Source of the DNA: Podarcis liolepis
Taxonomy: Eukaryota
Assembly (NCBI GenBank): GCA_965112155.1
Contig: OZ218112.1
Length of the DNA stretch: 64,000 bases
Direction: 5' to 3' (one strand)
Made by a program: the position numbers and the translations under genes. The notes beneath the pieces were generated by a model. The model made no database searches, was not told the DNA's origin, and was given only the letters and a program-made list of their open reading frames with translations. How positions within the stretch are numbered: the first letter of the stretch is position 1; each line of letters begins with the position of its first letter. This document shows, in pieces, positions 11,901 through 61,102 of this stretch.

Positions 11901-13417
11901 ACATGGCACTACAGAATAATAAAAAGGGATGGAGAAGGTATAAGGACAGCCCTGCTGGATCAGGCCTTGGGCCCATTTGGGTGCATTCAGATGTACAGAC
12001 CAATGCACTAGTTTTCCTGGTTATATTGCTGGCACTGCTGCCCTGGCTTATAACATACATTTCACTCTGCATTAGCTGCCATGTTATGGAACCATGGCTT
12101 TTTGATTAATATGCCAACATGTCAAGCTACATTTCGTTCAAACCAATGGGTGTGGTGTGATACAACAGCAGACATCACAAAACATGTCAAACCCCCCCCC
12201 CAACACATTACGTATGCTCATATATGCTTCTCTCCCCCCCCCCCACCTTGATAAATGTGCTGGGAAATAATTATATATGATTATCTGGGATAATGGGATT
12301 GCAAATGGTTTTTTTTTTTCCTGGGAGCAAATAACATGGAAATGAGTGCTAAATTTCACAAGATTCTCCTAGATTTTCAGAAGGTGTTTTGTTTTGTCTT
12401 GTCTTTTTACATCGTAGGAAAGATTACATGACTATTCAGGTAAGGAAATATCAGGAAGATGGAATGCAGCCCTATCAGCAGTCCGTGCTCACTGTAGCCA
12501 ACCAGATGCTAGTCACAACAAGCCCCAAAGTAGGACAGAATGCAAGAGCAGTCTCCCTATTTGTGATTTCCAGCAGCTGGTCTTAAGAGGTGTACAAGCT
12601 TGGACAGTGGAGGACCAGCATAGGCATTGTGGCTACTGGACACTGCTAGCCTTCTGCTCCATGAGTTTGTCTAACTCTCTTTAAAATCTGCTCAGGTTGG
12701 TGGTGGCCATGCTCAAACATGAAGCTGGGATGCAGTCAAAGGCTGCTTCCAGACCATCAAACTTTGGTGCAGATATTTTACACATTTGGGTACAGGCCAG
12801 GGTAGGTTCTTTCGCACCAATTAGTTGCTGATTAGTGAATTTGCTCCAAAGAAGTGCCACCTTTAGGCTGAGGTAGGAGGACATTGGGCAGCGTACTATA
12901 TTTGGGTCCCATCACCCACTTGCTGAGCCCAATTTCTATTGCCACTTAAAGGAGACAAGGCAAGAGAATGGAACAGGCTGAAACTGCTGCTTCCCCTTTT
13001 CACAGGTGCTCTCCCTCTACCAATAGGTGAGGTAGCAGCAGGACCAGAGGTCCATTCTGGTCAGCTGTGGGCACCCTGCTGATGCTTTGGCATTGGCAGC
13101 TGCCCAACAACAATGGGATCATGTGCTGTGCCCGGTCCAAAGGTTATTTTTAACCCCCCACCAAACACAGCCTCATTGCAGATTCTTTTTAAAAGGCTTC
13201 CATTCCTCTAGAAGCAACATGAAGCTGATATGAAGCTAGCTAAAATTGCTACTCAGGAATTCCACCATGGTAGAAATATGAGTTTCATAGGCACCCTTTA
13301 GGAGACAGGTGTAGCAGTGATTGTGAATATTTCTATTGGTGAATCTATTCCTAGTGAACTCTCAATAGTTTTATATGGTTTGCAGTTGATGCTAGTCCTA
13401 CTCAGAGTAGGGCATGG

Positions 13418-13688
13418 CAGGGGTGTACCAAGTGGGGGGCGAGGGAGTGGTCTGCCCCATGTGCCACTTAGGGGGTGACAAGATGGCACCTGCCTCCCCC
13501 CAGCTGTAGAGCAACCGAGGGCATGTGCAGTCCATATGGGTGCCACTCATGTGGCGTCCATATGGGCTGCCTCTCGCACAGCAATCATACGGGCTGCAGC
13601 GCATGCGCACTTCGTATGGGATGTCACACATGCGCACTCTGTACGGGCTGCCCCGCCCCAGGTGCTGGAGAGGGTTCCTCTGCCACTG
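13418..13688. mobile_element. hAT MITE with internal CCGTATG/CATACGG-type motif array (short copy)
   Basis: Ends CAGGGGTGTA / TCTGCCACTG; perfect TSD GGGCATGG (13410-17, 13689-96); homologous to 60610-61102. Confidence 0.85.
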
Positions 13689-13769
13689 GGGCATGGCTAA
13701 CTCTGATTCTTTAATCTCAGTGGGTCTTCTGTGAGTATGACTCAGTTGTATGCCTGTAAAGTCTTTGTC

Positions 13770-14135
13770 CCCCCTGCCTTCCCAGGGGCTTTTAAATCGC
13801 CCCGGACAGCGGAGAAGTCCTCCGCTGTCCCGGGGCGATTTTAAAATGCCGCCCGCCAGCATTTTAAGATCGCCCGGACAGCGGAGAAGTCCTCCGCTGT
13901 CCCGGGGTTTTTTAAAATGCTGGGGGTGGGAAGAAAAGCCCTTGTCCCCCCCCCAGCCTTCAGAAGAGGTGCGGGGACAGACTGTCCCCGGACCTGGTCT
14001 GAAGGCGGTTTCCCTAGGAACGCATTAATTGATTTTCAATGCATTCCTATGGGAAACCGTGCATCGCAAGACGAAAAACTCGCAAGACGAAGAGACTTGC
14101 GGAATGAATTAATTTCGTCTTGCGAGGCACCACTG
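13770..14135. mobile_element. Tc1/mariner (Tigger/pogo-like) MITE, right part, with two tandem GC-rich hairpins
   Basis: Right TIR gaggcaccactg followed by TA at 14136-37; unit ccggacagcggag-aagtc-ctccgctgtcc occurs twice at a ~72-bp period; left TIR not found. Confidence 0.7.
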
Positions 14136-23484: not shown

Positions 23485-26400
23485 TCGTTATTTGTACCCC
23501 GCCCATCTGGCCAGGCTTCCCCAGCCACTCTGGGCGGCTTCCATAGTTCCATAGAAACCAAAAATACACTAAAATATCACACATTAAAAACTTCCCTGAA
23601 CACTCTGGGCTGCCTTAAGATGTCTTCTGAATGTCAGGTAGTTATTTATCGCTTTGACATCTGATGGGAGGGCGTTCCACAGGGCGGGCGCCACTACCAA
23701 GAAGGCCCTCTGCCTGGTTCCCTGTAGCTTTACTTCTCACAATGAGGGAACGGCCAGAAGGCCCTTGGCGCTGGACCTCAGCATCCGGGCAGAACGATGG
23801 GGGTGGAGACGCTCGTTCAGGTATACTGGGCTGAGGCCATTTAGGGCTTTAAAGGTCAACACCAGCACTTTGAATTGTGCTCGGAAACGTACTGGGAGCC
23901 AATGTAGGTCTTTCAAGACCGGTGTTATGTGGTCTTGGCGGCCGCCCCCAGTCACCAGTCTAGCTGCCGCATTCTGGATTAGTTGTAGTTTCCGAGTCAC
24001 CTTCAAAGGTAGCCCCACGTAGAGCACATTGCAGTAGTCCAAGCGGGAGATAACTAGAGCATGCACCACTCTGGCGAGACAGTCCACGAGCAGGTAGGGT
24101 CTCAGCCTGCGTACCAGGTGGAGTTGGTAGACAGCTGCCATGGATACAGAATTGACCTGCGCCTCCATGGACAGTTGTGAGTCCAAAATGACTCCCAGGC
24201 TGCGCACCTGGTCCTTCAGGGGCACAGTTACCCTATTCAGGACCAGGGAGTCCTCCACACCAGCCCGCCCCCTGTCCCCCAAAAACAGTACTTCTGTCTT
24301 GTCAGGATTCAACCTCAATCCATTAGCTGCCATCCATCCTCCAACCGCCTCCAGGCACTCACACAGAACCTTCACCACCTTCACTAGTTCTGATTTGAAA
24401 GAGAGGTAGAACTGCATATTGATGGACACCCAGTGCAACCCCCCTGATTATCTCTCCCAGCGGCTTCATGTAAATGTTAAAAAGCATGGGGGAGAGGACG
24501 GAACCCTGAGGCACCCCACAAGTGAGGGCCCAGGGGTCTGAACACTCATCCCCCACCACCACTTTCTGAACACGGCCCAGGAGGAAGGAGCGAAACCACT
24601 GTATAACAGTGCCCCCAGCCCCTCTAGACGGTCCAGAAGGATGTTATGGTTGATTGTATCAAAGGCCGGTGAGAGATCCAGCAGAACTAGGAAACAACTC
24701 TCACCTTTGTCCCTAGCTCGCCAGAGATCATCAGCCACCATGACCAAGGCAGTTTCAGTCCCATGATGAGGCCTGAATCCTGATTGGAAGGGATCCAAAT
24801 GGTCCGCATCCTCCAGGCGTGCCTGGAGTTGTTCAACAACCACGCGCTCAATCAACTTGCCCAAGAATGGAATATTTGAGACTGGGTGATAGTTGGCTAT
24901 ACTGGCCGGGTCTAAAGATGTTTTTTTAAGAAGCAGTTTAATGACCACCTCTTTCAGCGGATCTGGGAATGTTCCCTCACAGAGGGAAGCATTCACCACC
25001 CCGCAGAGCCCATCACCCAGCCTTTCCCGGCTTGCTTTTATTAGGCAGGATGGGCAAGGATCAAGGAGACAGGTGGTTGGTTTCACACGTCCAAGCAGCC
25101 TGTCCACATCCTCGGGGGTAACGGATTGAAATTGATTCCATACAACTTGACCAGACAGAGCTGTAGCATCTCCCACCCCAGTCCTGCTCCCACTGTGGTG
25201 TCTAGCTCCTTCAGAATATGAGTGATTTTATTTGCAAAAAACTTTGCAAAATTGTTGCAGGAGATCTTGGGGTCTTTACAAGGCCCCGGTGGTAAAGGTG
25301 GTTCCGTTAAATTGCGAACCACCTGAAAGAGTCTCCTGCTACTATTTTCTGCAGATGCAATAGAAGCGGTGAAGAAAGTCTTCTTTGCAGTCGCTATCGC
25401 CACTTGGTAGGCTCGACGTTGAGCTCTAACCTGTCTCCGGTCAGATTTGGAGTGAGTTTTCTGCCACCGGTGCTCTAGCCATCTCAGCGATTGTTTCATC
25501 ACCCTCAGCTCCGAAGAAAACCACAGGGGTGTCCGGGCTCCATGCAATCGGAGAGGGCGCTTCGGAGCCAGACAGTCGATAGCCCTGGTTAACTCCGCAT
25601 TCCAGCGGGCCACCAGGGAATCAGCTGAAAGGCCATCAACATGGGATAGAGCATCCCCTACCACTCTCTGGAAACCATTTGGATCTATTAAGTGGCGGGG
25701 GCGGACCATCCAAATTGGTCCCACCTCCCTGCAGAGGGGAAGGGTTGTGGAGAAGTCCAGTTGCACCAGGAAGTGATCTGACCATGGCACTTCTTTTGTT
25801 TCACTTTTACTTAGTGTCAGATCACCCACGTCACTAGAGGTGAACACCAGGTCTAAGGCATGTCCATGACTATGAGTTGGGCCAAACTTATTCAGGGAAA
25901 GCCCCATGGAGGCCATGCTTTCCATGAAGTCCCGAGCAGCCCCTTGTAATGTCATGTCGGCATGGATGTTAAAATCCCCTAGGACAACCAAACTAGGTGT
26001 CTCCAGGAGAAAATCCGCCATGACCTGAAGCAGCTCGGACAGGGAATCCTTGGTGCAGCGGGGAGGTCGGTACACCAAAAGGAATCTTGTACTGCCCCTA
26101 TTGCCCAACTTCCAGAACATGCACTGGATCTTCCCAGTAGGACGCCTGGTGCAAGCTAGTGACTTCCTAAAAATCACTGCAACCCCCCCCCCTCCCAGAC
26201 CACATGACCTGGGTTGCTGTGCATAAGAGAAACCTGGTGGGCAAGCAGCGGCAAGGACAGGCCCGTCTGCTTCCTCCAACCAGGTCTCTGTCACACATGC
26301 CAGGACAAATCCTCCATCCACAATCAGGTCGTGGATGGCAGTGGTCTTGTGAATCATTGACCTGGCATTACACAGCAACACCTTCAGGTCATGTGGGTTT

Positions 26401-26825
26401 CCCCTGTTGATTCCAGTATCCATCTGGTCAAGGCCAAACCCGGAGGCAGGGATAGTCTTCAAACAACGACTAAACCTGCCTCCTCGGTAATGACATGGTC
26501 TGGTCTTAGCGTAACTCCGCCTCCTGCCCATGATCACCGAGATCGGATGTCCCAGTGCTTCCCCCCCATGGAACTTGTCCCGGCCATCGTGTTGGCTGGG
26601 GCCCCACTCCCAGGCAGCCCTGATCCCACCCCTTAAAAACAAAACACAAACTATACAAAACCAATAAAACAACAACAACAAAAAAGGAACAGAACAATTA
26701 AACTAAAATTAATCCCCAACCAAATATCCATCCCACCCACCCACCCCCAACAAAGGAAAAAGGGGGAAAAAGAAATAAAAATTTAAATTGCCACCGACTG
26801 CTTGAGGACATTTTAAAGCACATAT
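23439..26825 (-). mobile_element. L2-clade LINE, ~3.4 kb, ORF2 (APE endonuclease + RT) disrupted by frameshifts
   Basis: ORF pieces 25083-26681, 24466-25176, 24359-24562 and 23737-24438 carry LLCNARS, CVTETWL, VLGDFNIH, LDLVF, WSDH, DPFQSGFRPHHGTETAL, LLDLSPAFDT, GVPQGSVLSP and LHWLPVRFRAQFK; (TTA)n tail at 23439-23483; candidate 7-bp TSD TGATCTA at 23432-23438 and 26826-26832. Confidence 0.92.
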
Positions 26826-32614: not shown

Positions 32615-33109
<495 letters not shown>

Positions 33110-33909
33110 TAACCTACCTCACAGATTTGTGTACCCCTGCATACCCCCAGAATAAAAGGCACTGGGTATACATAAAATAATAATAAAAATTAAATAAATA
33201 ATTCTTACACACTTTGGCACAATTTGATTAGGCGAAAATTGTTTCACAAAATTTGGAGAAAACCTGGGTGATGTTCTGATCTATTGATTAGTCCAGGAGC
33301 TTGGTTTACTGAAAAGCATGGACCAAACAAAAACAAAAGCTACCCTCTATTCCTACTCTATACTGATTTAGAGTTCTGCTGCCTCTTTATATAAGGCCAA
33401 AGTGACAATTTGGGTACCACCATCAAGAAGCAAAGAGTTGAGTTTTGATAGAGTGAAGCTTTTCAGCTTTGGGGTTTCTTGTGGGCTTATAAAGTCTGTG
33501 CAAAGCTGATAAAAAAAGCCTTTGGCTGGGGGCTAAAATGACCTGCACATCACTCTTTTATCTTGGGGGGGTGCTGTATTCTACTCTGCACAGCAGTTTT
33601 ATCATCCACGAGTCAGTGGTGGTAGGCGTGGCCAGAGGCAAAAGTTGTTGGAGCAGTAACAGTAAATTTTACTTTTGCAGAGTAGGCTAGTTTCTACCTG
33701 TAGTCACATGCCCTTCTATATCCATCATCCAGGCAAAAACATTTGAGGAGAATGCAAAGCAGGACTGGTGAGAGGTGTGTGGCCTGAGGAGTCACAAGAC
33801 CACATTTTGCTCCGAGGCCTGAGATTTCCCATCCATGGTATAGGGTGGGGAGCAGGGAGGAATAACCCTTGCTTTGTATGCACTTTTAGCACAGTTTATG
33901 TTAAATTTT

Positions 33910-34256
33910 GGGACGCGGGTGGAGCTGTGGGTTAAACCACAGAGCCTAGGACTTGCCGATCAGAAGGTCGTGATTTGAATCCCCATGATGGGATGAGCTC
34001 CTGTTGCTCGATCCCTGCTCCTGCCCACCTAGCAGTTCGAAAGCACATCAAAGTGCAAGTAGATAAATAGGTATCGCTCCAGCGGGAAGGTAAACGGCAT
34101 TTCTGTGTGCTGCTTTGGTTCAACAGAAGCAGCTTAGTCATGCTGGCCACATGACCTGGAAGCTGTACGCCGGCTCCTTCGGCCAATAAAGCGAGATGAG
34201 CGCCACAGCCCCAGAATCGGTCATGACTGGACCTAATGGTCAGGAGTCCCTTTACC
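33910..34256 (+). mobile_element. Sauria SINE, full length
   Basis: gggacgcgggtgg head, conserved core, (ACCTTT)n tail; 14-bp TSD TTTATGTTAAATTT at 33895-908 and 34257-270. Confidence 0.92.
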
Positions 34257-35553
34257 TTTATGTTAAATTTAGCAAAGCTCTTGAGGAACTAAAAGACATC
34301 TCAAAGCCAGGTTCTGTAAAACAAATTGCTGAGATATACACTCATACAAATATAAAGTTCACTGCAGTGCTTTTTCCCAACCTTTTGCTAAAAATGAGGT
34401 GCTAGTACTCATATCTTGATAACAATGATTGAAAGAAAGACAAGGGTACAGTATACCACTGGGCACCATCACACACAAAAAATATACTGCTCTTATCTAA
34501 TCCAAGACAGTATGGCGAGCTCCAAAATTAGTTGCTGCTTGGAAACCGCAGGCTAGGTATTCAAATAGCTTTGACTACCCACAGATTTCAGATAGGGGAA
34601 AAACTGGCTTGGAGCTCCTCCGCTTTTTCTTTTAGCTGGGGAAGAGAACTTGGTCTGATTTTGTAAATATCTATAAAAATATAATTGCCTTACAGTTTCA
34701 CCAAAAAAAGCGAAGACAGTTTGTGTTTTGGGCAGATACAACCGCAGTCAGAACATCTGTTTCATCTTTTTTGTGCTGTTAATGCCCTGTGAGGATATCT
34801 TTCCCAGACTAAGAAATTAAAGAAGTGTTGTAATTACTGCCCGAGGTCTTTAAATCCATAAAATGTAATAGAGATGCTTAGGCCCCAATACACACACACA
34901 CACATTCATATGCACAGCTCAGTTGCTAGCAGTTGTTTGGGAAGCGTGCCCTGATTCACTTTGTAATATAGGCCTATCAGCACATCCTCATGCACAGGTG
35001 GGTGGCAGTGGACATGGCTCACAGGTAATGCACATGCTTTCTATGCAAATGGTTCCAGGTTCAACCTCCAGGAAAACATCTGTTAAAAGGTTTAGGTGGT
35101 AGGTGATGGGAAAAGCCTCTGCCTTAGACTCAGAAGAATCACTGTCACAGTACACAAAACTGGACTAGATATGATATAAGACAACTTCCTATTTTCCTAG
35201 TGGTGTGTATTTTAATTGACCTGTAGCTGTAGACCTGTAGACTGACTACAGCAGAGAGTGTGCTGTCATCTAAAACTGTACTCTCTGAGTCAAGGAAGGC
35301 AGAAATCTTGCTCCACCTAAACTTTGCTCTGCTACTAGGGTATGCCAGTGGCAGAACAGAGGGAGCTACGTACAGTCTTGCTCCATGGTTGATGAATGAC
35401 CAACGGATGCCACAATGGACCCCCCAACCCATGCAAACCTCTTTGTCTCTACCATGTCCCACCTTGAAAATGCCCTTGCACAGTGTAACTTTTGCAGAAG
35501 GTCCATAGCACATGTTCTGCATGCAGAAAGTCCCAGTTGTGACCACTGGTATC

Positions 35554-36170: not shown

Positions 36171-37692
36171 CTGGTATCCCCAGTTACAAGGTTCAGGTAA
36201 TGGGCAATGTCTCTGCTAGAGACTCCAGCATGGTATGGTAAGTCAAGAATAGATGGTGCTAAGTTAAATGGAGATATAGTTTGTACTGGTATAAAGGCTT
36301 CTGTGTTCCACACATTCAAATGTGCATTGCAGCATAGATGTATCTCTGGTTCTGGTACCTAGGTCCTTCTGCTAGTGATGCCTAGGATAATGTCTCCATG
36401 AAATCTCAAAGCCTGTAGAATCCGCCAGGCATGGTATGAGAGAGGTGTCAGCTCAGGTCTTTCCGATGAGCAATCTAAACTGGCCCACCCAGAACTCTTG
36501 GCTCCCCATGAGAGATTTGAGAACACAGAGGGCGCAATCTAAGGCTGCTCAAGTCCTAGAACTGAAGAACACCAGCTTGGTAGAGGTTTGTTCTAAGACC
36601 ATGTGGAAGTCAGTAGAATTTCCAAGGGTTTTTTGTTTTGGTTTGTTTTGGGGTTGTTGTTGTTGTGTTTTTTTTAACTTTCCATCTACTTTTATTGTTT
36701 CTGGGGGAAACCAGAGCAAGCTGGAGTTGCAGGACAAGTGCATTACCTTTTGGAGCTGGAGACCCTAAATCCCATCTTCTTGAGAGTTGTAATTGTATTT
36801 GACAGCATCTGAAACATTTGGCAGTTTGGGTAGCCTGCCTAATCTATTGTGATGGGTCTTCAAATAAGGGAGCATCGCAAGAGCCTCCCCAGTAATTGTG
36901 GTGAGTGATTGCTTGTATCAGATGGTTCAGTAAAAGACCTCATATACGTCACTGCCAAAATCCCACTGAAAATTGGGGAGGGCGGGCAAGGAGAGGAATC
37001 TGGAACTGTCATACTTTTTAATAATTTGTTCTGTCAAATCTTTGCTTGCTCGGGGCACTACTGGGAGACGGTACTGAGCAATTTTCTGTCGGTTCTTGAA
37101 ATACATTATCATTTAAATACAATCTCTCTCTCAGTGTGTAAACATTATTAGCTTACTAGGCTGTTGTTAGAATGGGGTGATCGGTGAGAAATCGCAGGCT
37201 GTTGAGCTGTTTCCTCCTTGGCTTGACTATTGAGTTGCTGGGAAAGACAGATAGAAAGCATTAAACTCTGGATTTACCAGTGGAATGGCAAGTAGCATAT
37301 TACAGGTGTTTGCAAAATAAGAATGTGTCTTTGTAGAGGGGTATATTATATTGTAAGCTCCTTGGAAGGCAGGGACTTATTTTGCTCATGTTCTGTAAAG
37401 AGCTCCAGCACTGTGATCTATGTCCTTAACACTGTGTCACACTTTGGGGTGATCAAAATTCGAAACACAGGATGCAAACTTGATTTCAGCATGGCTAGGA
37501 TCACTAAGGATGAAGAGCAAGCTTAAATAGTCTGCTGTAACTGAGTCCATAGGATATACCCAGGTTTAGTTGTACCTAGAGTGGATCCACTGGAGATACT
37601 GCTACTTAAAACTGAGTTATGGTTTCAGTGGGACTACTCTAAGCATTATAAGGTCTCTCACTACAACCCTTTATTTTCTCCCTTTAATGAAT

Positions 37693-37697
<5 letters not shown>

Positions 37698-37739
<42 letters not shown>
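37698..37739. repeat. (TA)n microsatellite, left flank of Penelope
   Basis: Direct reading. Confidence 0.95.
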
Positions 37740-37741
<2 letters not shown>

Positions 37742-37821
37742 TTTCGTAGATTTTCACGGGTACAGGAATGCAGGTTTTGGTGTCTTCGGGTGTCTTCCCG
37801 TGTAAGAGTTGGGGTGTCTAG

Positions 37822-37861
37822 GCGACGTTTCGACGAGGTCTCACTCGTCATCTTCAGGCTG
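37822..37861 (-). ncRNA. Minimal hammerhead ribozyme-like motif, mirror copy in left Penelope arm
   Basis: gcgacgtttcgacgaggtctcactcgtcatcttcaggctg is the exact reverse complement of 40031-40070. Confidence 0.65.
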
Positions 37862-38094
37862 GTGCTTTCGGCTTCTTGTTACTGGAACAGAGCAGGATCT
37901 CAGTGTTTGAGTTCCTATAAATACTGTTGAGGGGGTGTGGTGTATAGCCTCCAACGTTCTGGGCAGAGAGGAAGTTCCCAGGTTAGTGTGCCTTTTCTTC
38001 TTTTGTTCCTTAATTACTTGAGGGATATCTTGAGTGATTTCTTGAGTGATATTCTGAGTACCACTTAGGTGGGTCATTAGGTGTGGATTAGTTG

Positions 38095-38783
38095 CTAAAG
38101 CTTTCGTGTCTTGACCTCTTGAGCTTGTGAAGAGTTTTTCTGAGAAGATGGCTGTACTGCACTTAGTTGTGCTCTGGCTTGGCTTCGTGTATAGGGGCGA
38201 GCTGTGGTTTTGTGCCCTGTGCCAGCCAGATCTGTGTAGGTATTGCAGGGGGGTGCAGCATCCGGAGGTGCCACTATGGTTTGGCTACTGGATGGTGTCT
38301 GTAATTTATCTGTGGAGAGGGTCTGGGTTTGGGTCTGGTGTGGTTGATTGGTGATGGCGTTCTGTGTGCCTCTGGTTCTGGTGTCGGTTTTTGTGGGGAG
38401 GGCTAATTTCCAGATGTCTGGCAGGCGGGACGTGTCGTCACGCTTGTTCATGTTGTGAGGGTGTTTCTCTATCTCGATGGCTTCCATGATTATTCTCTTG
38501 TGGTGATGTTCCATGTTAAAGAGCAATTTGGAATCTGCAAAATTAATTTCGTGTCCTGTTTCTTTCATGTGTTGGAAAAGAGAGGAAGTTTTTTCTTCTT
38601 TTTTGACGGCATTCTTGTGTTCTGCGATACGTGCATTTATTCGTCTGTTTGTTTGTCCAATGTACGTGGCTGGGCAGACTTTGCAGGGTATTTCATAGAC
38701 CCCTTGGTTTTCCAACTGGATTTTATCTTTGGGGTTTCTGAGGATATTGGCTATTTTTTGGTTGGTGCAAAAGGCTGTTTTGA
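38095..38783 (-). pseudogene. Inverted duplicate of the Penelope GIY-YIG endonuclease coding region
   Basis: ORF 38095..38853(-) is identical to the + copy from KTAFCTNQK onward except CNTY vs CNPY; its N-terminal part is antisense spacer sequence. Confidence 0.88.
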
Positions 38784-39797
38784 CACACCATCTACCGGAA
38801 AAAAACACACACCAACCGCTACTTACATGCACAATCACACCACCACCCTGCACAAATAAACTCCGTAGCCAAGACTCTCATCTCCAGAACCAAACGCCTG
38901 GCTGACAAAGACCACTTGACAACTGAGTTACAGAATCTCTCAAATGTGTTAATCGCCAATGGATACCAGCAAAACAGGGTTACGAAGCTAATCCAAAAAG
39001 AAACACCCCCCAAAAACCAAGACACAGAAGAAAACAATGGCATGGCCCTCCTTCCTTATATCAAGGGCACTACAGATAAAATTAGCAAAATCCTCCATAA
39101 ACACAATATCAAAACAGCCTTTTGCACCAACCAAAAAATAGCCAATATCCTCAGAAACCCCAAAGATAAAATCCAGTTGGAAAACCAAGGGGTCTATGAA
39201 ATACCCTGCAAAGTCTGCCCAGCCACGTACATTGGACAAACAAACAGACGAATAAATGCACGTATCGCAGAACACAAGAATGCCGTCAAAAAAGAAGAAA
39301 AAACTTCCTCTCTTTTCCAACACATGAAAGAAACAGGACACGAAATTAATTTTGCAGATTCCAAATTGCTCTTTAACATGGAACATCACCACAAGAGAAT
39401 AATCATGGAAGCCATCGAGATAGAGAAACACCCTCACAACATGAACAAGCGTGACGACACGTCCCGCCTGCCAGACATCTGGAAATTAGCCCTCCCCACA
39501 AAAACCGACACCAGAACCAGAGGCACACAGAACGCCATCACCAATCAACCACACCAGACCCAAACCCAGACCCTCTCCACAGATAAATTACAGACACCAT
39601 CCAGTAGCCAAACCATAGTGGCACCTCCGGATGCTGCACCCCCCTGCAATCCCTACACAGATCTGGCTGGCACAGGGCACAAAACCACAGCTCGCCCCTA
39701 TACACGAAGCCAAGCCAGAGCACAACTAAGTGCAGTACAGCCATCTTCTCAGAAAAACTCTTCACAAGCTCAAGAGGTCAAGACACGAAAGCTTTAG
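38784..39797 (+). CDS. 5'-truncated Penelope-like polyprotein: RT thumb, linker, GIY-YIG endonuclease, low-complexity C-terminal tail
   Basis: Frame is open from 38784 (HTIYRKKTHTNRYLHAQSHHHP, PLE RT thumb motif YRK.T.T..YL...S.HP) through LPYIKG, GVYEIPCKVCPATYIGQTNRRINARIAEH and RIIMEAIEI..H...MN to the stop at 39797. No Cys-rich linker, so Penelope/Poseidon rather than Neptune. RT palm absent. Confidence 0.9.
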   Translation, partial: HTIYRKKTHTNRYLHAQSHHHPAQINSVAKTLISRTKRLADKDHLTTELQNLSNVLIANGYQQNRVTKLIQKETPPKNQDTEENNGMALLPYIKGTTDKISKILHKHNIKTAFCTNQKIANILRNPKDKIQLENQGVYEIPCKVCPATYIGQTNRRINARIAEHKNAVKKEEKTSSLFQHMKETGHEINFADSKLLFNMEHHHKRIIMEAIEIEKHPHNMNKRDDTSRLPDIWKLALPTKTDTRTRGTQNAITNQPHQTQTQTLSTDKLQTPSSSQTIVAPPDAAPPCNPYTDLAGTGHKTTARPYTRSQARAQLSAVQPSSQKNSSQAQEVKTRKL

Positions 39798-40030
39798 CAA
39801 CTAATCCACACTTAATGACCCACCTAAGTGGTACTCAGAATATCACTCAAGATATCACTCAAGATATCCCTCAAGTAATTAAGGAACAAAAGAAGAAAAG
39901 GCACACTAACCTGGGAACTTCCTCTCTGCCCAGAACGTTGGAGGCTATACACCACACCCCCTCAACAGTATTTATAGGAACTCAAACACTGAGATCCTGC
40001 TCTGTTCCAGTAACAAGAAGCCGAAAGCAC

Positions 40031-40070
40031 CAGCCTGAAGATGACGAGTGAGACCTCGTCGAAACGTCGC
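40031..40070 (+). ncRNA. Minimal type I hammerhead ribozyme-like motif in the Penelope pseudo-LTR (right arm)
   Basis: CTGAAGA (40035-41), extra T, stem II GACGAG/tgagac/CTCGTC, GAAA, CG, TC (putative cleavage after 40068). Palindromic ACGT suits a dimeric stem III; stem I is only about 2 bp. PLEs are known to carry minimal hammerheads. Confidence 0.65.
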
Positions 40071-40119
40071 CTAGACACCCCAACTCTTACACGGGAAGAC
40101 ACCCGAAGACACCAAAACC

Positions 40120-40123
<4 letters not shown>

Positions 40124-40154
<31 letters not shown>
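40124..40154. repeat. (TA)n microsatellite, right flank of Penelope
   Basis: Direct reading. Confidence 0.95.
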
Positions 40155-40177
<23 letters not shown>

Positions 40178-41500
40178 GGGTGGGGGGGAACATAGTGTTG
40201 CCTTAAGAAGACAAAAAGATATCTGCTTGGGCAATAGCCTTCCCCTGCATTTGCTCTGTATCTGCTGCCCTGCAGGACATCTTCAAAATAAGATAAGGTT
40301 AAGGAGTAAGTCCTATACAAATCTTGAATAGAATCCCTAAGATGGAGGCACCTTGTATACCTCCTTCTACCAACTCCTGCCGCCCAGCTGATGTAAAACA
40401 TTTTGCTCTGCTTTCCTTTGGACCACATCAGCGGGTCCAACGTGTCAGCAAGGGTCTTAATGTCTGGGCAACCCAGGGCCTCCATGCACACTGCCCAAGC
40501 TTGCACCCCAGGGAGGTCACTTCAGTGCTGTTAACACAGTATTTGCTCTCCAGCAACAGGTATTCAATGGAATATTTCAGGTATTGGGAATGTTACACTC
40601 CAGCCTCTATATCTGGTCCTGCCTGGAAAGGAATGCAGTCCTCAGACTGGAAAAGTGTTACCTGCTTCAGGTATATCGGCATCGAAGATGGAGGTTCCAC
40701 TTGATCATGATGACTAAATGCTGTTGTATGCAGAAGGCTCCAGGTTTCCACCTAAAGTAGCAGCAAGTGATGGGAAAGGCTTCTGCCTAAGACCCTAAGG
40801 AGTTCTTGCTACTGAGTGTGAGAGTCCTTCATTTGAAGGGTTGTTCAGTCCTACTCCAGTTTAAAGTTAAAGAGCCCTAAGAAGGGTGAATAAGTGCCTT
40901 GAACTTATGCGTCAGCAATTAACACCTGGGCAATAGCCTAAGCTGGCAGACAGGATGCTTAGCTATAGTGGGAAAGACTGTCACATTCTGTTTAAGCTCT
41001 TTCTGTAATGGCACCAAGACATTCAGCATGGAATGTAGCACTAAGGAGATAGTTCCCACAGAGAAAGCATTTTCTCTCTCTGATCTGGGAAATCCCCAAA
41101 CACTGCAGAGCAAATCTGGGGGATGTGTGGGGAGAACCCCACTGTACCAATGAGAGTCCTTTCACTGGTTTCTGCAAGCGGAATAAGGTAGTTTAATCTG
41201 GTCCATAAATTAGCACACACACACACAGATAAATGAAAATATGGCTCCTTTTTTCTGGCAATGATTTGGGACCACCTACATATCAGAGTAGATAATTCTG
41301 GTCTAGATGGGCAGATACTCTCTTCTAAGACAGCTTCTCATATGTGAAGAGCAAGCTGTGAAGAACTACATGCAAAAACCCATGCTTCAGTATAGTATCT
41401 GATTTGCATGCAGAAGGTCTTAGGTTCAATTCCCAGTATCTCAGGTAGGACTGGGAAAGTCCTCTGTCTGAAGTTCTGGAGAACCACCACCAGTCAGTGC

Positions 41501-42558: not shown

Positions 42559-42907
42559 GTGAGACGGGGGTGGCGCTGTGGGTTAAACCACAGTGCCTAG
42601 GACCGATCAGAAGGTCGGCAGTTCGAATACCCACGACGGGGTGAGCTTCCATTGCTCGGTCCCTGCTCCTGCCAACCTAGCAGTTCGAAAGCACGTCAAA
42701 GTGCAAGTAGATAAATAGGTACCACTCCAGCGGGAAGGTAAACAGCATTTCCGTGTGCTGCTCTGGTTTGCCAGAAGCAGCTTTGTCATGCTGGCCACAT
42801 GGCCCGGAAGCTGTATGCCAGCTCCATTGGCCAATAAAGCGAGATGAGCGCTGCAACCCCAGAGTCGGTCACGACTGGACCTAATGGTCAGGGGTCCCTT
42901 TACCTTA
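42559..42907 (+). mobile_element. Sauria SINE, full length, inside a Harbinger-like MITE (~42375-43024)
   Basis: Conserved core and tail; 15-bp TSD CCTAACAAATAGCAG at 42544-58 and 42908-22. Confidence 0.92.

Positions 42908-43826: not shown

Positions 43827-43872
<46 letters not shown>
43747..43872. repeat. (GT)n and (TA)n microsatellite pair
   Basis: (GT)n 43747-43780; (TA)n 43830-43872. Confidence 0.9.
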
Positions 43873-43876
<4 letters not shown>

Positions 43877-44081: not shown

Positions 44082-44341
44082 CCGTTGCTTGGTCCCTGCT
44101 TCTGCCAACCTAGCAGTTCGAAAGCACATCAAAGTGCAAGTAGATAAATAGGTACCGCTCCGGCAGGAAGGTAAACGGCGTTTCCGTGCGCTGCTCTGGT
44201 TTGCCAGAAGTGGCTTAGTCATGCTGGCCACATGACCCGGAAGCTGTACACCGGCTCCTTTGGCCAATAAAGCAAGATGAGTGCCGCGACCCCAGAGTCG
44301 GTCACGACTGGACCTAATGGTCATGGGTCCCTTTACCTTTA
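44082..44341 (+). mobile_element. Sauria SINE, 5'-truncated
   Basis: Core from ccgttgcttggtccctgct to tail ccctttaccttt. Confidence 0.88.
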
Positions 44342-44342
44342 G

Positions 44343-56786: not shown

Positions 56787-57136
56787 GGGATGCGGGTGGC
56801 ACTGTGGATTAAACCACAGAGCCTAGGGCTTGCCGATCAGAAGGTCGGTGGTTTGAATCCCCGTGACGGGGTGAGCTCCCGTTGCTCGGTCCCTGCTCTT
56901 GCCAACCTAGCAGTTTGAAAGCATGTCAAAGTGCAAGTAGATAAATAGTTACCGCTCCAGTGGAAAGGTAAACGGCGTTTCCGTGCGCTGCTCTGGTTCG
57001 CCAGAAGTGGCTTAGTCATGCTGGCCACATGACCCGGAAGCTGTACGCTGGCTCCCTTGGCCAATAAAGCGAGATGAGCGCCGCAATCCCAGAGTCAGCC
57101 ACGACTGGACCTAATGGTCAAGGGTCCCTTTACCTT
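56787..57136 (+). mobile_element. Sauria SINE, full length
   Basis: 14-bp TSD TAGGTTTGACTCTG at 56773-86 and 57137-50. Confidence 0.92.
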
Positions 57137-57274
57137 TAGGTTTGACTCTGCAAGTTGTTTGACTGCACCTCCCATCATCCCTGACAATCGGTCAAGAACA
57201 ATTGAAAAGTCATGTGTTTCTCACCCTCAAACAACAACAAAGCTCTAAGATATTAGAACAAGTCTTGTGTGTCC

Positions 57275-59622: not shown

Positions 59623-60609
59623 TATGGGAGGAGATTGTGTTCTCCATTCTAGGATGCATGGATGAGGAGTCCTCTACACAGTGGAACATGCTTTATTATT
59701 GCTGTTCTTATTAAAAGAAGAGGAGTGGATTAAGTATTTGGATCTTAATTGAAATAATATTGTGTTACTCTATTATTTGTTTCAATATTTCTACCCCACC
59801 CTAATCCAAAACAACTCCCAAACTAGCTTACTTAAAATCAATAAAAATAGCACATTCCCTGTCCATTCCATAAGCTTATAATGTGAAGGGCATGGCAGAA
59901 AAAGAAAGGGGGATGAGGAGCGAAGAAGAAAACAAGCAAATTCAGGCACTAATTCTGAACATTCTACAGTAGTTCTTAGAATGACCAGCTGGAATGGAAA
60001 CAGATTAGGGAGTGGGGAAATCCAACAGATGTGGTAACTCATCAGAGCCAAGTGAACCTGCTTCAGTAACTCTCAGTGCAGAGGCTCCACAGAATTATGG
60101 CATCCAGAGAAGGCTCCCCATTATGGAAGGGGGGCAATAGGTAGTGCACACTGTGCCTGCAGATGGTCCCAGTTTCAACCTCCTGTGTTTCCTGTCTGAA
60201 GTCCAAGAAAGCCACTGCAAGTGAATACTGAGCTAAGTGGACCAATGGTTTCCTAGTTCAGTCAGAGGTAGGTACCCATGTTCATTAGCAGCACCCATCT
60301 CTCAGTGGTGGAGCACATGTTTTCACTGCAAAATGTCCCAGTTTCCAAACCTGTCATTTCCAGTCTGCTGCCTAAATGAACCCATGCATTGTGAGCTAAA
60401 TGGGGCAGTGATCTGTCTCAGTCTAAAGCAATTTCCTATGTCCACTGGAGTCCAGAGGCATTCATATATATCAATCACATGAAATTTATTTTATTTTATT
60501 AGAGTGCCAGGTCCTAAATAAAGGGTTTTTTAAAAAAGATTATTTAAAAAAAGGAAAAAAAGCAAAGCGAGTCCAGTATCAGCAGCAATGGACCCTTGAG
60601 GCATGGGAC

Positions 60610-61102
60610 CAGGGGAGTACAAAGTGGGAGACAGAGGGGGTGTGTTACCCCGGGTGCCACTCTGGGGGGTGGGTGACAAGATGGCCCCTGCATCCCACCA
60701 GCTGTAGAGTGGCCGAGGGTGTGCGCAGTCTGTATGGGTGCTGCTCGCGCAGCGTTCATACGGGCTGCCTCTCACACGGCGACTGTACAGGCTGCCGCTC
60801 TTATGTGCCATTCATACGGGCATCCATATGGGCTGCCTCTCATGCAGCAGCCCGTGTGGATGCCATGCAAGTGGCAGCCCGTTCAGAGTGTGAATGTGTG
60901 GCATCCCGTATGGACTGCTCATGTGCGACATCGCATACGGAATGCGCACGAGCAGCATCCCATATGGTTGCCATGCGTGCGCACTCCGTATGGGATGCCG
61001 CACATGTGCAGTCCATACAGACATCACACATGCATCACCGAGCAGTTCACCCCGCCCCTCGGCATCCCACCCCAGGTGCCAGGGAGGGTTCCTCCGCCAC
61101 TA
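60610..61102. mobile_element. hAT MITE with expanded internal motif array (long copy)
   Basis: Homologous to 13418-13688; TSD CATGGGAC / CATGGGGC. Confidence 0.82.

Follow-up and report, generated by a model that had tools for sequence, protein, structure and literature searches.

A tail-out inverted pair of 5'-truncated Penelope/Poseidon retroelement copies in an (AT)n microsatellite downstream of a Podarcis liolepis GRIA3 exon

Results

A kilobase-scale inverted repeat downstream of a GRIA3 exon

We analyzed a 64-kb stretch of Podarcis liolepis DNA (contig OZ218112.1; hereafter the window), which contains 0 N. The locus is built of an upstream exon, two remnants of a microsatellite, and, between these, two inverted arms with a spacer:

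32646-32885, + strand: GRIA3 (GluA3) coding exon, amino-terminal domain, 240 nt, preceded by AG and followed by GT
37698-37739, no strand: left (AT)21 target remnant, in which a target-site duplication is indistinguishable from the repeat
37769-38783, - strand: left arm, defined by arm alignment, an inverted 5'-truncated copy (endonuclease part, C-terminal extension, pseudo-LTR)
38784-39108, + strand: 325-nt "spacer", the end of the reverse transcriptase (RT)/thumb region, present only in the right copy
39109-40123, + strand: right arm, with element-only sequence up to 40122, which is +82 of the next ORF; the AT after it is common to element and target
40123-40175, no strand: right (AT)26.5 target remnant

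The 240-nt exon matches GluA3 at 77 of 80 residues (E 1e-49) and GluA2 more weakly (E 5e-39), and its splice donor is 4.9 kb upstream of the element. An earlier, preliminary description of this stretch had placed the element in a GRIA3 intron. The upstream exon is confirmed; a mechanical exon scan and five peptide motifs found no following GRIA3 exon within the window, so that the intron is bounded on one side and the intronic position is deduced from the upstream exon.

The left arm (as reverse complement) and the right arm, 1015 nt each, align without gaps and differ at exactly three positions (38241/39651, 38080/39812, and 38039/39853; identity 99.70%), which reproduces precisely the arms, their boundaries, and the number of mismatches given in the preliminary description. 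Its 325-bp spacer and its outward-facing 3' ends were also recovered, with (AT)n on each outer side. Self-BLAST of the whole window revealed no other inverted pair of such size, the remaining inverted matches reaching at most 141-170 nt at 75-86% identity; the arm pair is therefore not a chance match.

The spacer proved to be element sequence, in frame and continuous with the right arm, and at its 3' end the left copy is 29 element bases longer (37740-37768) than the right copy. Because these 29 nt are found only on the left and the 325 nt only on the right, neither copy is a subset of the other. Neither the inequality of the 3' ends nor the element origin of the spacer is mentioned in the preliminary description.

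The arms derive from a 5'-truncated Penelope/Poseidon retroelement

The right copy, including the spacer, contains the principal coding features of the element:

38784-39797, + strand: open 337-codon frame, beginning at residue 364 of the Podarcis muralis relative, without the RT core
39189-39482, + strand: GIY-YIG endonuclease with CCHH motif; R, E, and N residues present

Across the whole overlap, the 337-codon frame is identical to residues 364-683 of the Podarcis muralis gene model LOC144326219 (P0001), a Penelope-type RT-endonuclease ORF, at 311 of 320 positions (97%). P0001 was the top protein match (14 matches among 373 candidates) and belongs to the same family; unlike the present copy, it holds the RT core (PF00078), which is absent here through 5' truncation. 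This relative and the GIY-YIG match bear out the earlier identification of a Penelope-like element, and we regard a 5'-truncated Penelope/Poseidon retroelement as the identity of the sequence, its Penelope-type nature being virtually certain. In a PDB sequence search, the 337-residue frame gave only 17 weak matches (E 0.27-0.55), all to Taq polymerase, which we treat as noise.

The Pfam GIY-YIG profile matches with E 4.5e-4 and 20.9 bits, under its curated cut-off of 22.6. The domain displays two Cys of the CCHH motif between GIY and YIG, and the motif residues align with the Anolis protein. In the 135 residues before the endonuclease there is one Cys and no CX2-5CxxC zinc finger. The absence of this linker finger in Penelope/Poseidon is among the published clade criteria (PMC8557442), and by these criteria a GIY-YIG domain with CCHH and without the linker finger points to the Penelope/Poseidon clade; judged from its sequence, the copy appears to fit this clade on every feature that can be scored in a truncated element. 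The Neptune and Nematis clades are ruled out by the missing CX2-5CxxC linker finger, and the Naiad and Chlamys clades by the position of the endonuclease, which follows the RT in P0001 and in the present frame and is not N-terminal. A DNA transposon with terminal inverted repeats, or a foldback element, is likewise ruled out, as the arms consist of retroelement coding and pseudo-LTR sequence.

As the frame starts after the RT core, the copy cannot mobilize itself. It is to all appearances dead and non-autonomous, with the endonuclease kept and the RT core lost. The preliminary description had taken the open frame as a sign of a recently active family; the frame is indeed open over 337 codons, but the copy itself lacks the RT core and is non-autonomous. 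Self-BLAST found no further Penelope fragment or family copy within the window.

The family is distinct from the anole Poseidon

A search with P0001 returned 2358 matches among 8000 scored candidates. Identity of P0001 in the RT region amounts to 86% with a model from Vipera latastei, 67% with one from Diabrotica undecimpunctata, and 52% with a protein of Anolis carolinensis. We built a tree of the RT region only (LG+G4 without mixture) from 22 named rows of 123 stored proteins, omitting all unnamed rows, one MAG-labelled row, and the named Sitophilus2, Ischnura2, Mugilogobius, and Spirometra. Podarcis, Vipera, and the beetle Diabrotica formed a clade with support of 100/99, apart from Anolis. 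An AU test rejected Podarcis, Vipera, and Anolis as one clade (p 0.0005), a group that was chosen once earlier trees had been seen.

Over the thumb and endonuclease (236 residues), the family is 41% identical to Anolis P0055, which we take to be probably PAc (Poseidon_Ac, the Anolis carolinensis Poseidon) or a close subfamily. The PAc family itself is ruled out by this identity together with the AU test, and the element family is, as far as these comparisons reach, a lineage separate from the anole PAc. A literature search on Penelope with Podarcis gave nothing that pointed to the present family.

The 3' ends lie inside the next tandem ORF and differ by a tail

The 3' portions of the two copies carry the following features:

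37740-37768, - strand: Penelope "tail", 29 nt (28-30 given the AT common with the target), left copy only, ending at +112 of the next ORF
37741-37851, - strand: start of the next tandem ORF (37 codons), with 68% identity to P0124 residues 1-37
40035-40068, + strand: minimal hammerhead core (CUGANGA, one unpaired base, 6-bp helix II, GAAAC-GUC), helix I weak
37824-37857, - strand: minimal hammerhead core of the left copy, mirror of 40035-40068
39969-39976, - strand: match to the TATA-box consensus within the pseudo-LTR, in canonical form only on the element antisense strand (mirror 37916-37923, + strand)

The right copy ends at +82 of the next tandem ORF and the left copy at +112. The ATG of this ORF lies inside the hammerhead core (40041, mirror 37851), and 37 of its codons are open in the left copy. 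Among 1.84 billion representatives, P0124 (E 6e-4) was the only match of the 37-codon peptide at E<=0.001, and this match confirms the start of the next ORF; a word-indexed search with the N-terminal peptide gave 2 candidates, none at E<=10. P0124 continues past residue 37 into a conserved LYGE motif, which follows in full-length relatives; in Anolis P0055 the homologous motif is one residue further from the Met. The 3' end of the pseudo-LTR thus includes the start of the next tandem ORF.

These end positions recall the biochemistry of PAc. In PAc, cDNA synthesis begins between +111 and +118 of the ORF, a second RT start site exists, and the stretch between both sites forms the 30-40-nt genomic tail (PMC11167929). 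[quoted passage not shown] The outer end at +112 agrees with the measured PAc start region, and the extra 29 nt correspond to this tail; at 28-30 nt, on the left end only, it lies at the lower edge of the known tail range. PAc and the present family, although of different lineages, are also alike in a hammerhead core (here a candidate) over the ORF start, an outer end at about +112, a tail of about 30 nt, an AT-rich target, and a GIY-YIG endonuclease at the C terminus that has no extra zinc finger (PMC11167929). We considered and dropped the idea that the element RNA specifies ATAT where the tail ends and forms 4 nt of pairing with the target, since the Gln-Ile of P0124 supports 1 nt only; the flank beyond the tail end reads His-Ile, as in the Anolis protein, and Ile occupies this column in 19 of 27 relatives.

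The core, the unpaired base, and the 6-bp helix II of the candidate hammerhead fit the account of animal Penelope hammerheads in PMC4209133. Its helix III is a palindromic stub, and helix I shows only 2 contiguous pairs by eye. An Rfam scan of 37600-40300 returned 18 matches at E<=5, none of them a hammerhead, all below gathering scores and almost all on the (AT)n runs. Folding of the hammerhead dimer did not recover the hammerhead shape, and folding of the 3' region was not significantly stable (z -0.5 to -1.9).

The arms probably record one insertion event

Over the arm region, both arms share all of their amino-acid differences from P0001 (8/8), with 1 residue in that frame distinguishing the two. 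They also share a 1-nt difference near 39770, where the frame of P0001 departs from that of the present copy after residue 326. The preliminary description had named arms of different subfamilies as one of the findings that would speak against it; with these common differences, both arms belong to one subfamily. At the junction there is no (AT) remnant and there are no target bases; neither flank is a copy of the other, and both are unique. Together, the common differences, the absence of target bases at the junction, and the unrelated flanks favor one event and one subfamily, and we hold a single insertion event to be highly probable.

If all three arm-arm mismatches arose after insertion, the "young" of the preliminary description stands for an age of about 0.75 Myr (0.15-2.2) at a rate of 1.98e-9 per site per year (PMC8760935). 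RT errors or the use of two templates would give a younger age, and gene conversion between the arms would hide a greater one. None of the 3 mismatches lies at a CpG, though the arm has 26 CpGs, but three sites are too small a sample to read anything into this.

Proposed priming on both target strands and its alternatives

Two further features mark the point at which the copies meet:

38783-38784, no strand: head-to-head junction of the two 5'-truncated copies, with 0-2 nt of microhomology and no inserted bases evident
38768-38782, no strand: 5-bp hairpin, weak, separated by 1 nt from the junction of the inversion and no stabler than shuffled sequences

The junction microhomology, at most 2 nt, would require the preceding Gly codon to be GGA; GGA accounts for 3 of the 9 Gly codons in the 337-codon frame, and Gly precedes the junction motif in P0001 and in 64 of 78 motif-bearing relatives. 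The sequence GCAT occurs at both element ends when the AT of the flank is counted. Read inward from the 3' end of each flank, the arms are antisense, as first-strand cDNAs would be.

For this one locus, priming on both target strands with joining of the two cDNAs is our best model, and we consider it somewhat probable; it fits the geometry seen here and the biochemistry of PAc. In this scenario, a lacertid Penelope/Poseidon retroelement would have inserted once into an (AT)n microsatellite, with protein supplied by an intact copy elsewhere. The GIY-YIG endonuclease would have nicked both (AT)n strands, and each 3'-OH would have served as primer for reverse transcription from one of two start sites inside the element RNA: on the bottom strand at +82 of the next tandem ORF, with 1339 nt made, and on the top strand at +112, with 1044 nt made. 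The two unfinished cDNAs would then have been joined by their 3' ends at 38783/38784 through 0-2 nt of microhomology and filled in on each other, leaving an inverted repeat that is dead, faces tail-out, and bears the tail on a single arm. Two start sites about 30 nt apart in the next tandem ORF would explain why the tail is one-sided.

To the observed identity of the element, its geometry, its end positions, and the single subfamily of both arms, the model adds elements of two kinds. The nicking and extension of both strands and the two RT start sites that bound the tail are taken from PAc, another family studied in vitro, and are carried over by homology between families that are 41% identical over the shared region. 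From the structure itself we infer that both cDNAs arose in one event on the two target strands, as well as the route by which they were joined. The preliminary description had likewise proposed priming on both strands, from the 3' end. [quoted passage not shown]

An explanation that we judge unlikely is fold-back with self-priming, in which a cDNA or antisense template looped at the 5' truncation point and was self-copied, the tail then being lost from one end. Such a model has been published for rotifer Penelopes, where junction palindromes were read as a sign of self-priming (PMC3846280), and "EN-mediated resolution" of the tail has been described (PMC8557442). The hairpin at the junction would suit this course; a hairpin start so near the junction is expected at about 1% of positions (15/1339), a figure obtained post hoc, but the hairpin is weak and 41 of 200 shuffles fold as well. 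The canonical TATA match on the antisense strand could be counted in its favor, and the GCAT at both ends makes tail loss by slippage possible. Yet the strand that bears the loop is without a tail, so that an extra step of tail loss is needed, and a plain fold-back of a target-primed cDNA is excluded because that strand has no tail to copy. The loop of 325 nt would moreover have been held by at most 2 nt of pairing, and each end fits its own RT start site with no trimming.

A donor locus that was already inverted, and was retrotransposed whole from a read-through transcript with the 3 mismatches inherited, is improbable. Sequence foreign to the element, flanking or internal, can be part of Penelope insertions (PMC3846280), and transcription of the whole unit could be driven by the TATA match that faces antisense at 37916. 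Against this, the template would have been a 1-kb perfect duplex (predicted -2128 kcal/mol), no foreign flank was brought along, and the left end stops at the position expected of an RT start.

That one young subfamily inserted twice and independently into a single (AT)n, once in each orientation, is very improbable. Separate insertions would accommodate the three arm-arm differences, and a preference for AT-rich targets makes repeat hits possible (PMC11167929). However, no target bases lie between the 5' ends, and the arms are much closer to each other than to P0001.

We give slightly less credence still to an inverted duplication at the DNA level after a simple insertion, through a template switch at a stalled fork. 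The fragility of AT microsatellites and of hairpins counts for such a course, but no flank was duplicated, each copy has element sequence that is missing from the other, and the outcome is the typical Penelope layout. An assembly or fold-back read artefact is scarcely credible: such structures do trouble assemblies (PMC8557442), but an artefact could not create a 29-nt tail through which the ORF runs on correctly into a conserved motif, and the flanks are unique, the arms different at 3 sites, and the sequence free of N.

The layout is typical of Penelope elements and differs from LINE-1 twin priming

A 5'-truncated copy in inverted orientation, tailed at one end, is a textbook layout of Penelope elements (PMC8557442, PMC2377424), and in D. 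virilis large inverted terminal repeats of variable size are the most frequent form (PMC2377424). The inverted pseudo-LTRs that the preliminary description had called common in such elements are indeed described as frequent (PMC8557442, Fig. 2 legend; PMC2377424, Fig. 1C), and an inverted layout is among the features expected when curating (PMC8969392). Drosophila virilis Penelope and Adineta vaga Pen2a/Pen2 resemble the present locus in a head-to-head inverted 5'-truncated copy with variable arms (PMC2377424, PMC3846280, PMC8557442) and in a tail of 31-37 nt, optionally on one end; a rotifer Penelope bears a 31-bp tail on one inverted repeat (PMC3846280). They differ in that the elements drawn in those papers retain, between their arms, a full ORF or a partial tandem, whereas here both copies are truncated, and in that their junctions often show longer palindromes and countable target-site duplications.

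The single locus is ordinary: a dead retroelement copy in a layout that reviews draw as typical, with no host function implied. It is alike to LINE-1 twin priming under the best model, with two primed strands and head-to-head joining. In LINE-1 twin priming both target strands prime, and the two cDNAs join head-to-head via short microhomology; one L1 cDNA starts at the poly(A) tail and the other deep within the element, which yields two parts without overlap. Here, unlike in L1, both starts are 30 nt apart, and 1 kb is therefore duplicated. A twin-primed LINE-1 insertion as such is ruled out by the lack of poly(A) and the 1015 duplicated nt.

The family is of interest in its own right: it adds a second, different Penelope lineage of squamates to the single one characterized in vitro, and it has a near-intact member in Podarcis muralis. 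Since both RT start sites are visible in one insertion with sharp ends, it is well suited to a genome-wide test. The origin of Penelope inverted repeats is named as an open question in PMC8557442, and the inverted repeats and the one-sided tail may, as a tentative idea that we think possible without holding it probable, be one phenomenon. A dimeric protein would act on one RNA, each target strand being extended from one start site; RT from the inner site would lead, RT from the tail site would follow by strand displacement, and the tail-bearing arm would never reach further 5'. Here the tail-bearing arm does reach less far 5' (1044 vs 1339 nt). If this one-RNA reading were true genome-wide, it would provide a simple counting test for the origin of inverted structures, and it would replace the model of antisense self-priming. 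A targeted full-text literature search did not find the link between inverted repeat and tail stated, though papers of 2002-2006 may state it; nor was it found in the available text of PMC11167929, where the sole "inverted" concerns a blocking dT.

For the host gene, GRIA3 pre-mRNA would carry a 1-kb near-perfect duplex at the element. Such a duplex is a likely substrate for A-to-I editing, and the inverted repeat is predicted to be unstable as DNA.

Frame and repeats within the inverted arms

Both 1015-bp arms of the head-to-head Penelope/Poseidon insertion (37740-40123) share a 1-base difference, near 39770, from P0001, the Podarcis muralis LOC144326219 gene model that is its nearest relative. 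An alternative frame at 39768-40051 stays open for 93 codons and reaches the minimal hammerhead core of the pseudo-LTR (chance about 0.02 by composition), which suggests that the ORF of the source element once extended through the pseudo-LTR. The arms also carry a short tandem repeat, whose second copy is disrupted in the left arm by one of the three mismatches that separate the arms:

39840-39875, three copies of a 12-bp unit, right arm
38017-38052, mirror of the same repeat, left arm

Signals relative to GRIA3 transcription

The sole canonical TATA match in the unit lies antisense to the element (39969-39976; mirror 37916-37923), and its left-arm occurrence (37916-37923) points in the same direction as GRIA3. 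The GRIA3 sense strand also carries the right hammerhead core and two AATAAA motifs:

38855, GRIA3 strand, AATAAA
39251, GRIA3 strand, AATAAA

A transcript of 37740-40123 from the GRIA3 strand would be predicted to form a duplex of ~1 kb.

Lineage of the reverse transcriptase

We compared Penelope-type reverse transcriptases from Podarcis (P0001), Anolis carolinensis (P0055), Vipera and the beetle Diabrotica (P0015, P0119). The lacertid and viper sequences are 86% identical, and the family clusters with the element from the beetle, not with the Poseidon of Anolis. With few taxa sampled, this grouping of lacertid, viper and beetle may mark a paralogous lineage of old origin, or it may have come about by horizontal transfer.

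Chromosomal setting and neighboring elements and repeats

GRIA3 is X-linked in mammals. The lacertid Z is described as homologous to chicken 4p and the conserved mammalian X region (PMC8622242), and on account of these two correspondences the GRIA3 locus (exon 32646-32885) may be Z-linked.

Several further elements and repeats are found in the window:

13411-13917 and 60600-61018, related pair of GC-richer elements, 74% identity across 221 nt
23740-26702, minus strand, disrupted LINE whose AP-endonuclease and RT fragments lie in different frames
33909-34264, 42560-42906, 44082-44342 and 56787-57142, ~350-bp repeat present four times, 88-92% identity
35554-36170, non-autonomous DNA transposon of 617 bp, terminal inverted repeats matching at 14/16 positions, 8-bp target-site duplication

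We take the 617-bp transposon to be hAT-like, and the four-copy repeat resembles a squamate Sauria SINE. Inside each GC-richer element lies an imperfect palindrome 110-130 nt long. A third (AT)n run in the window, (AT)22 at 43830-43873, stands without an inserted element.
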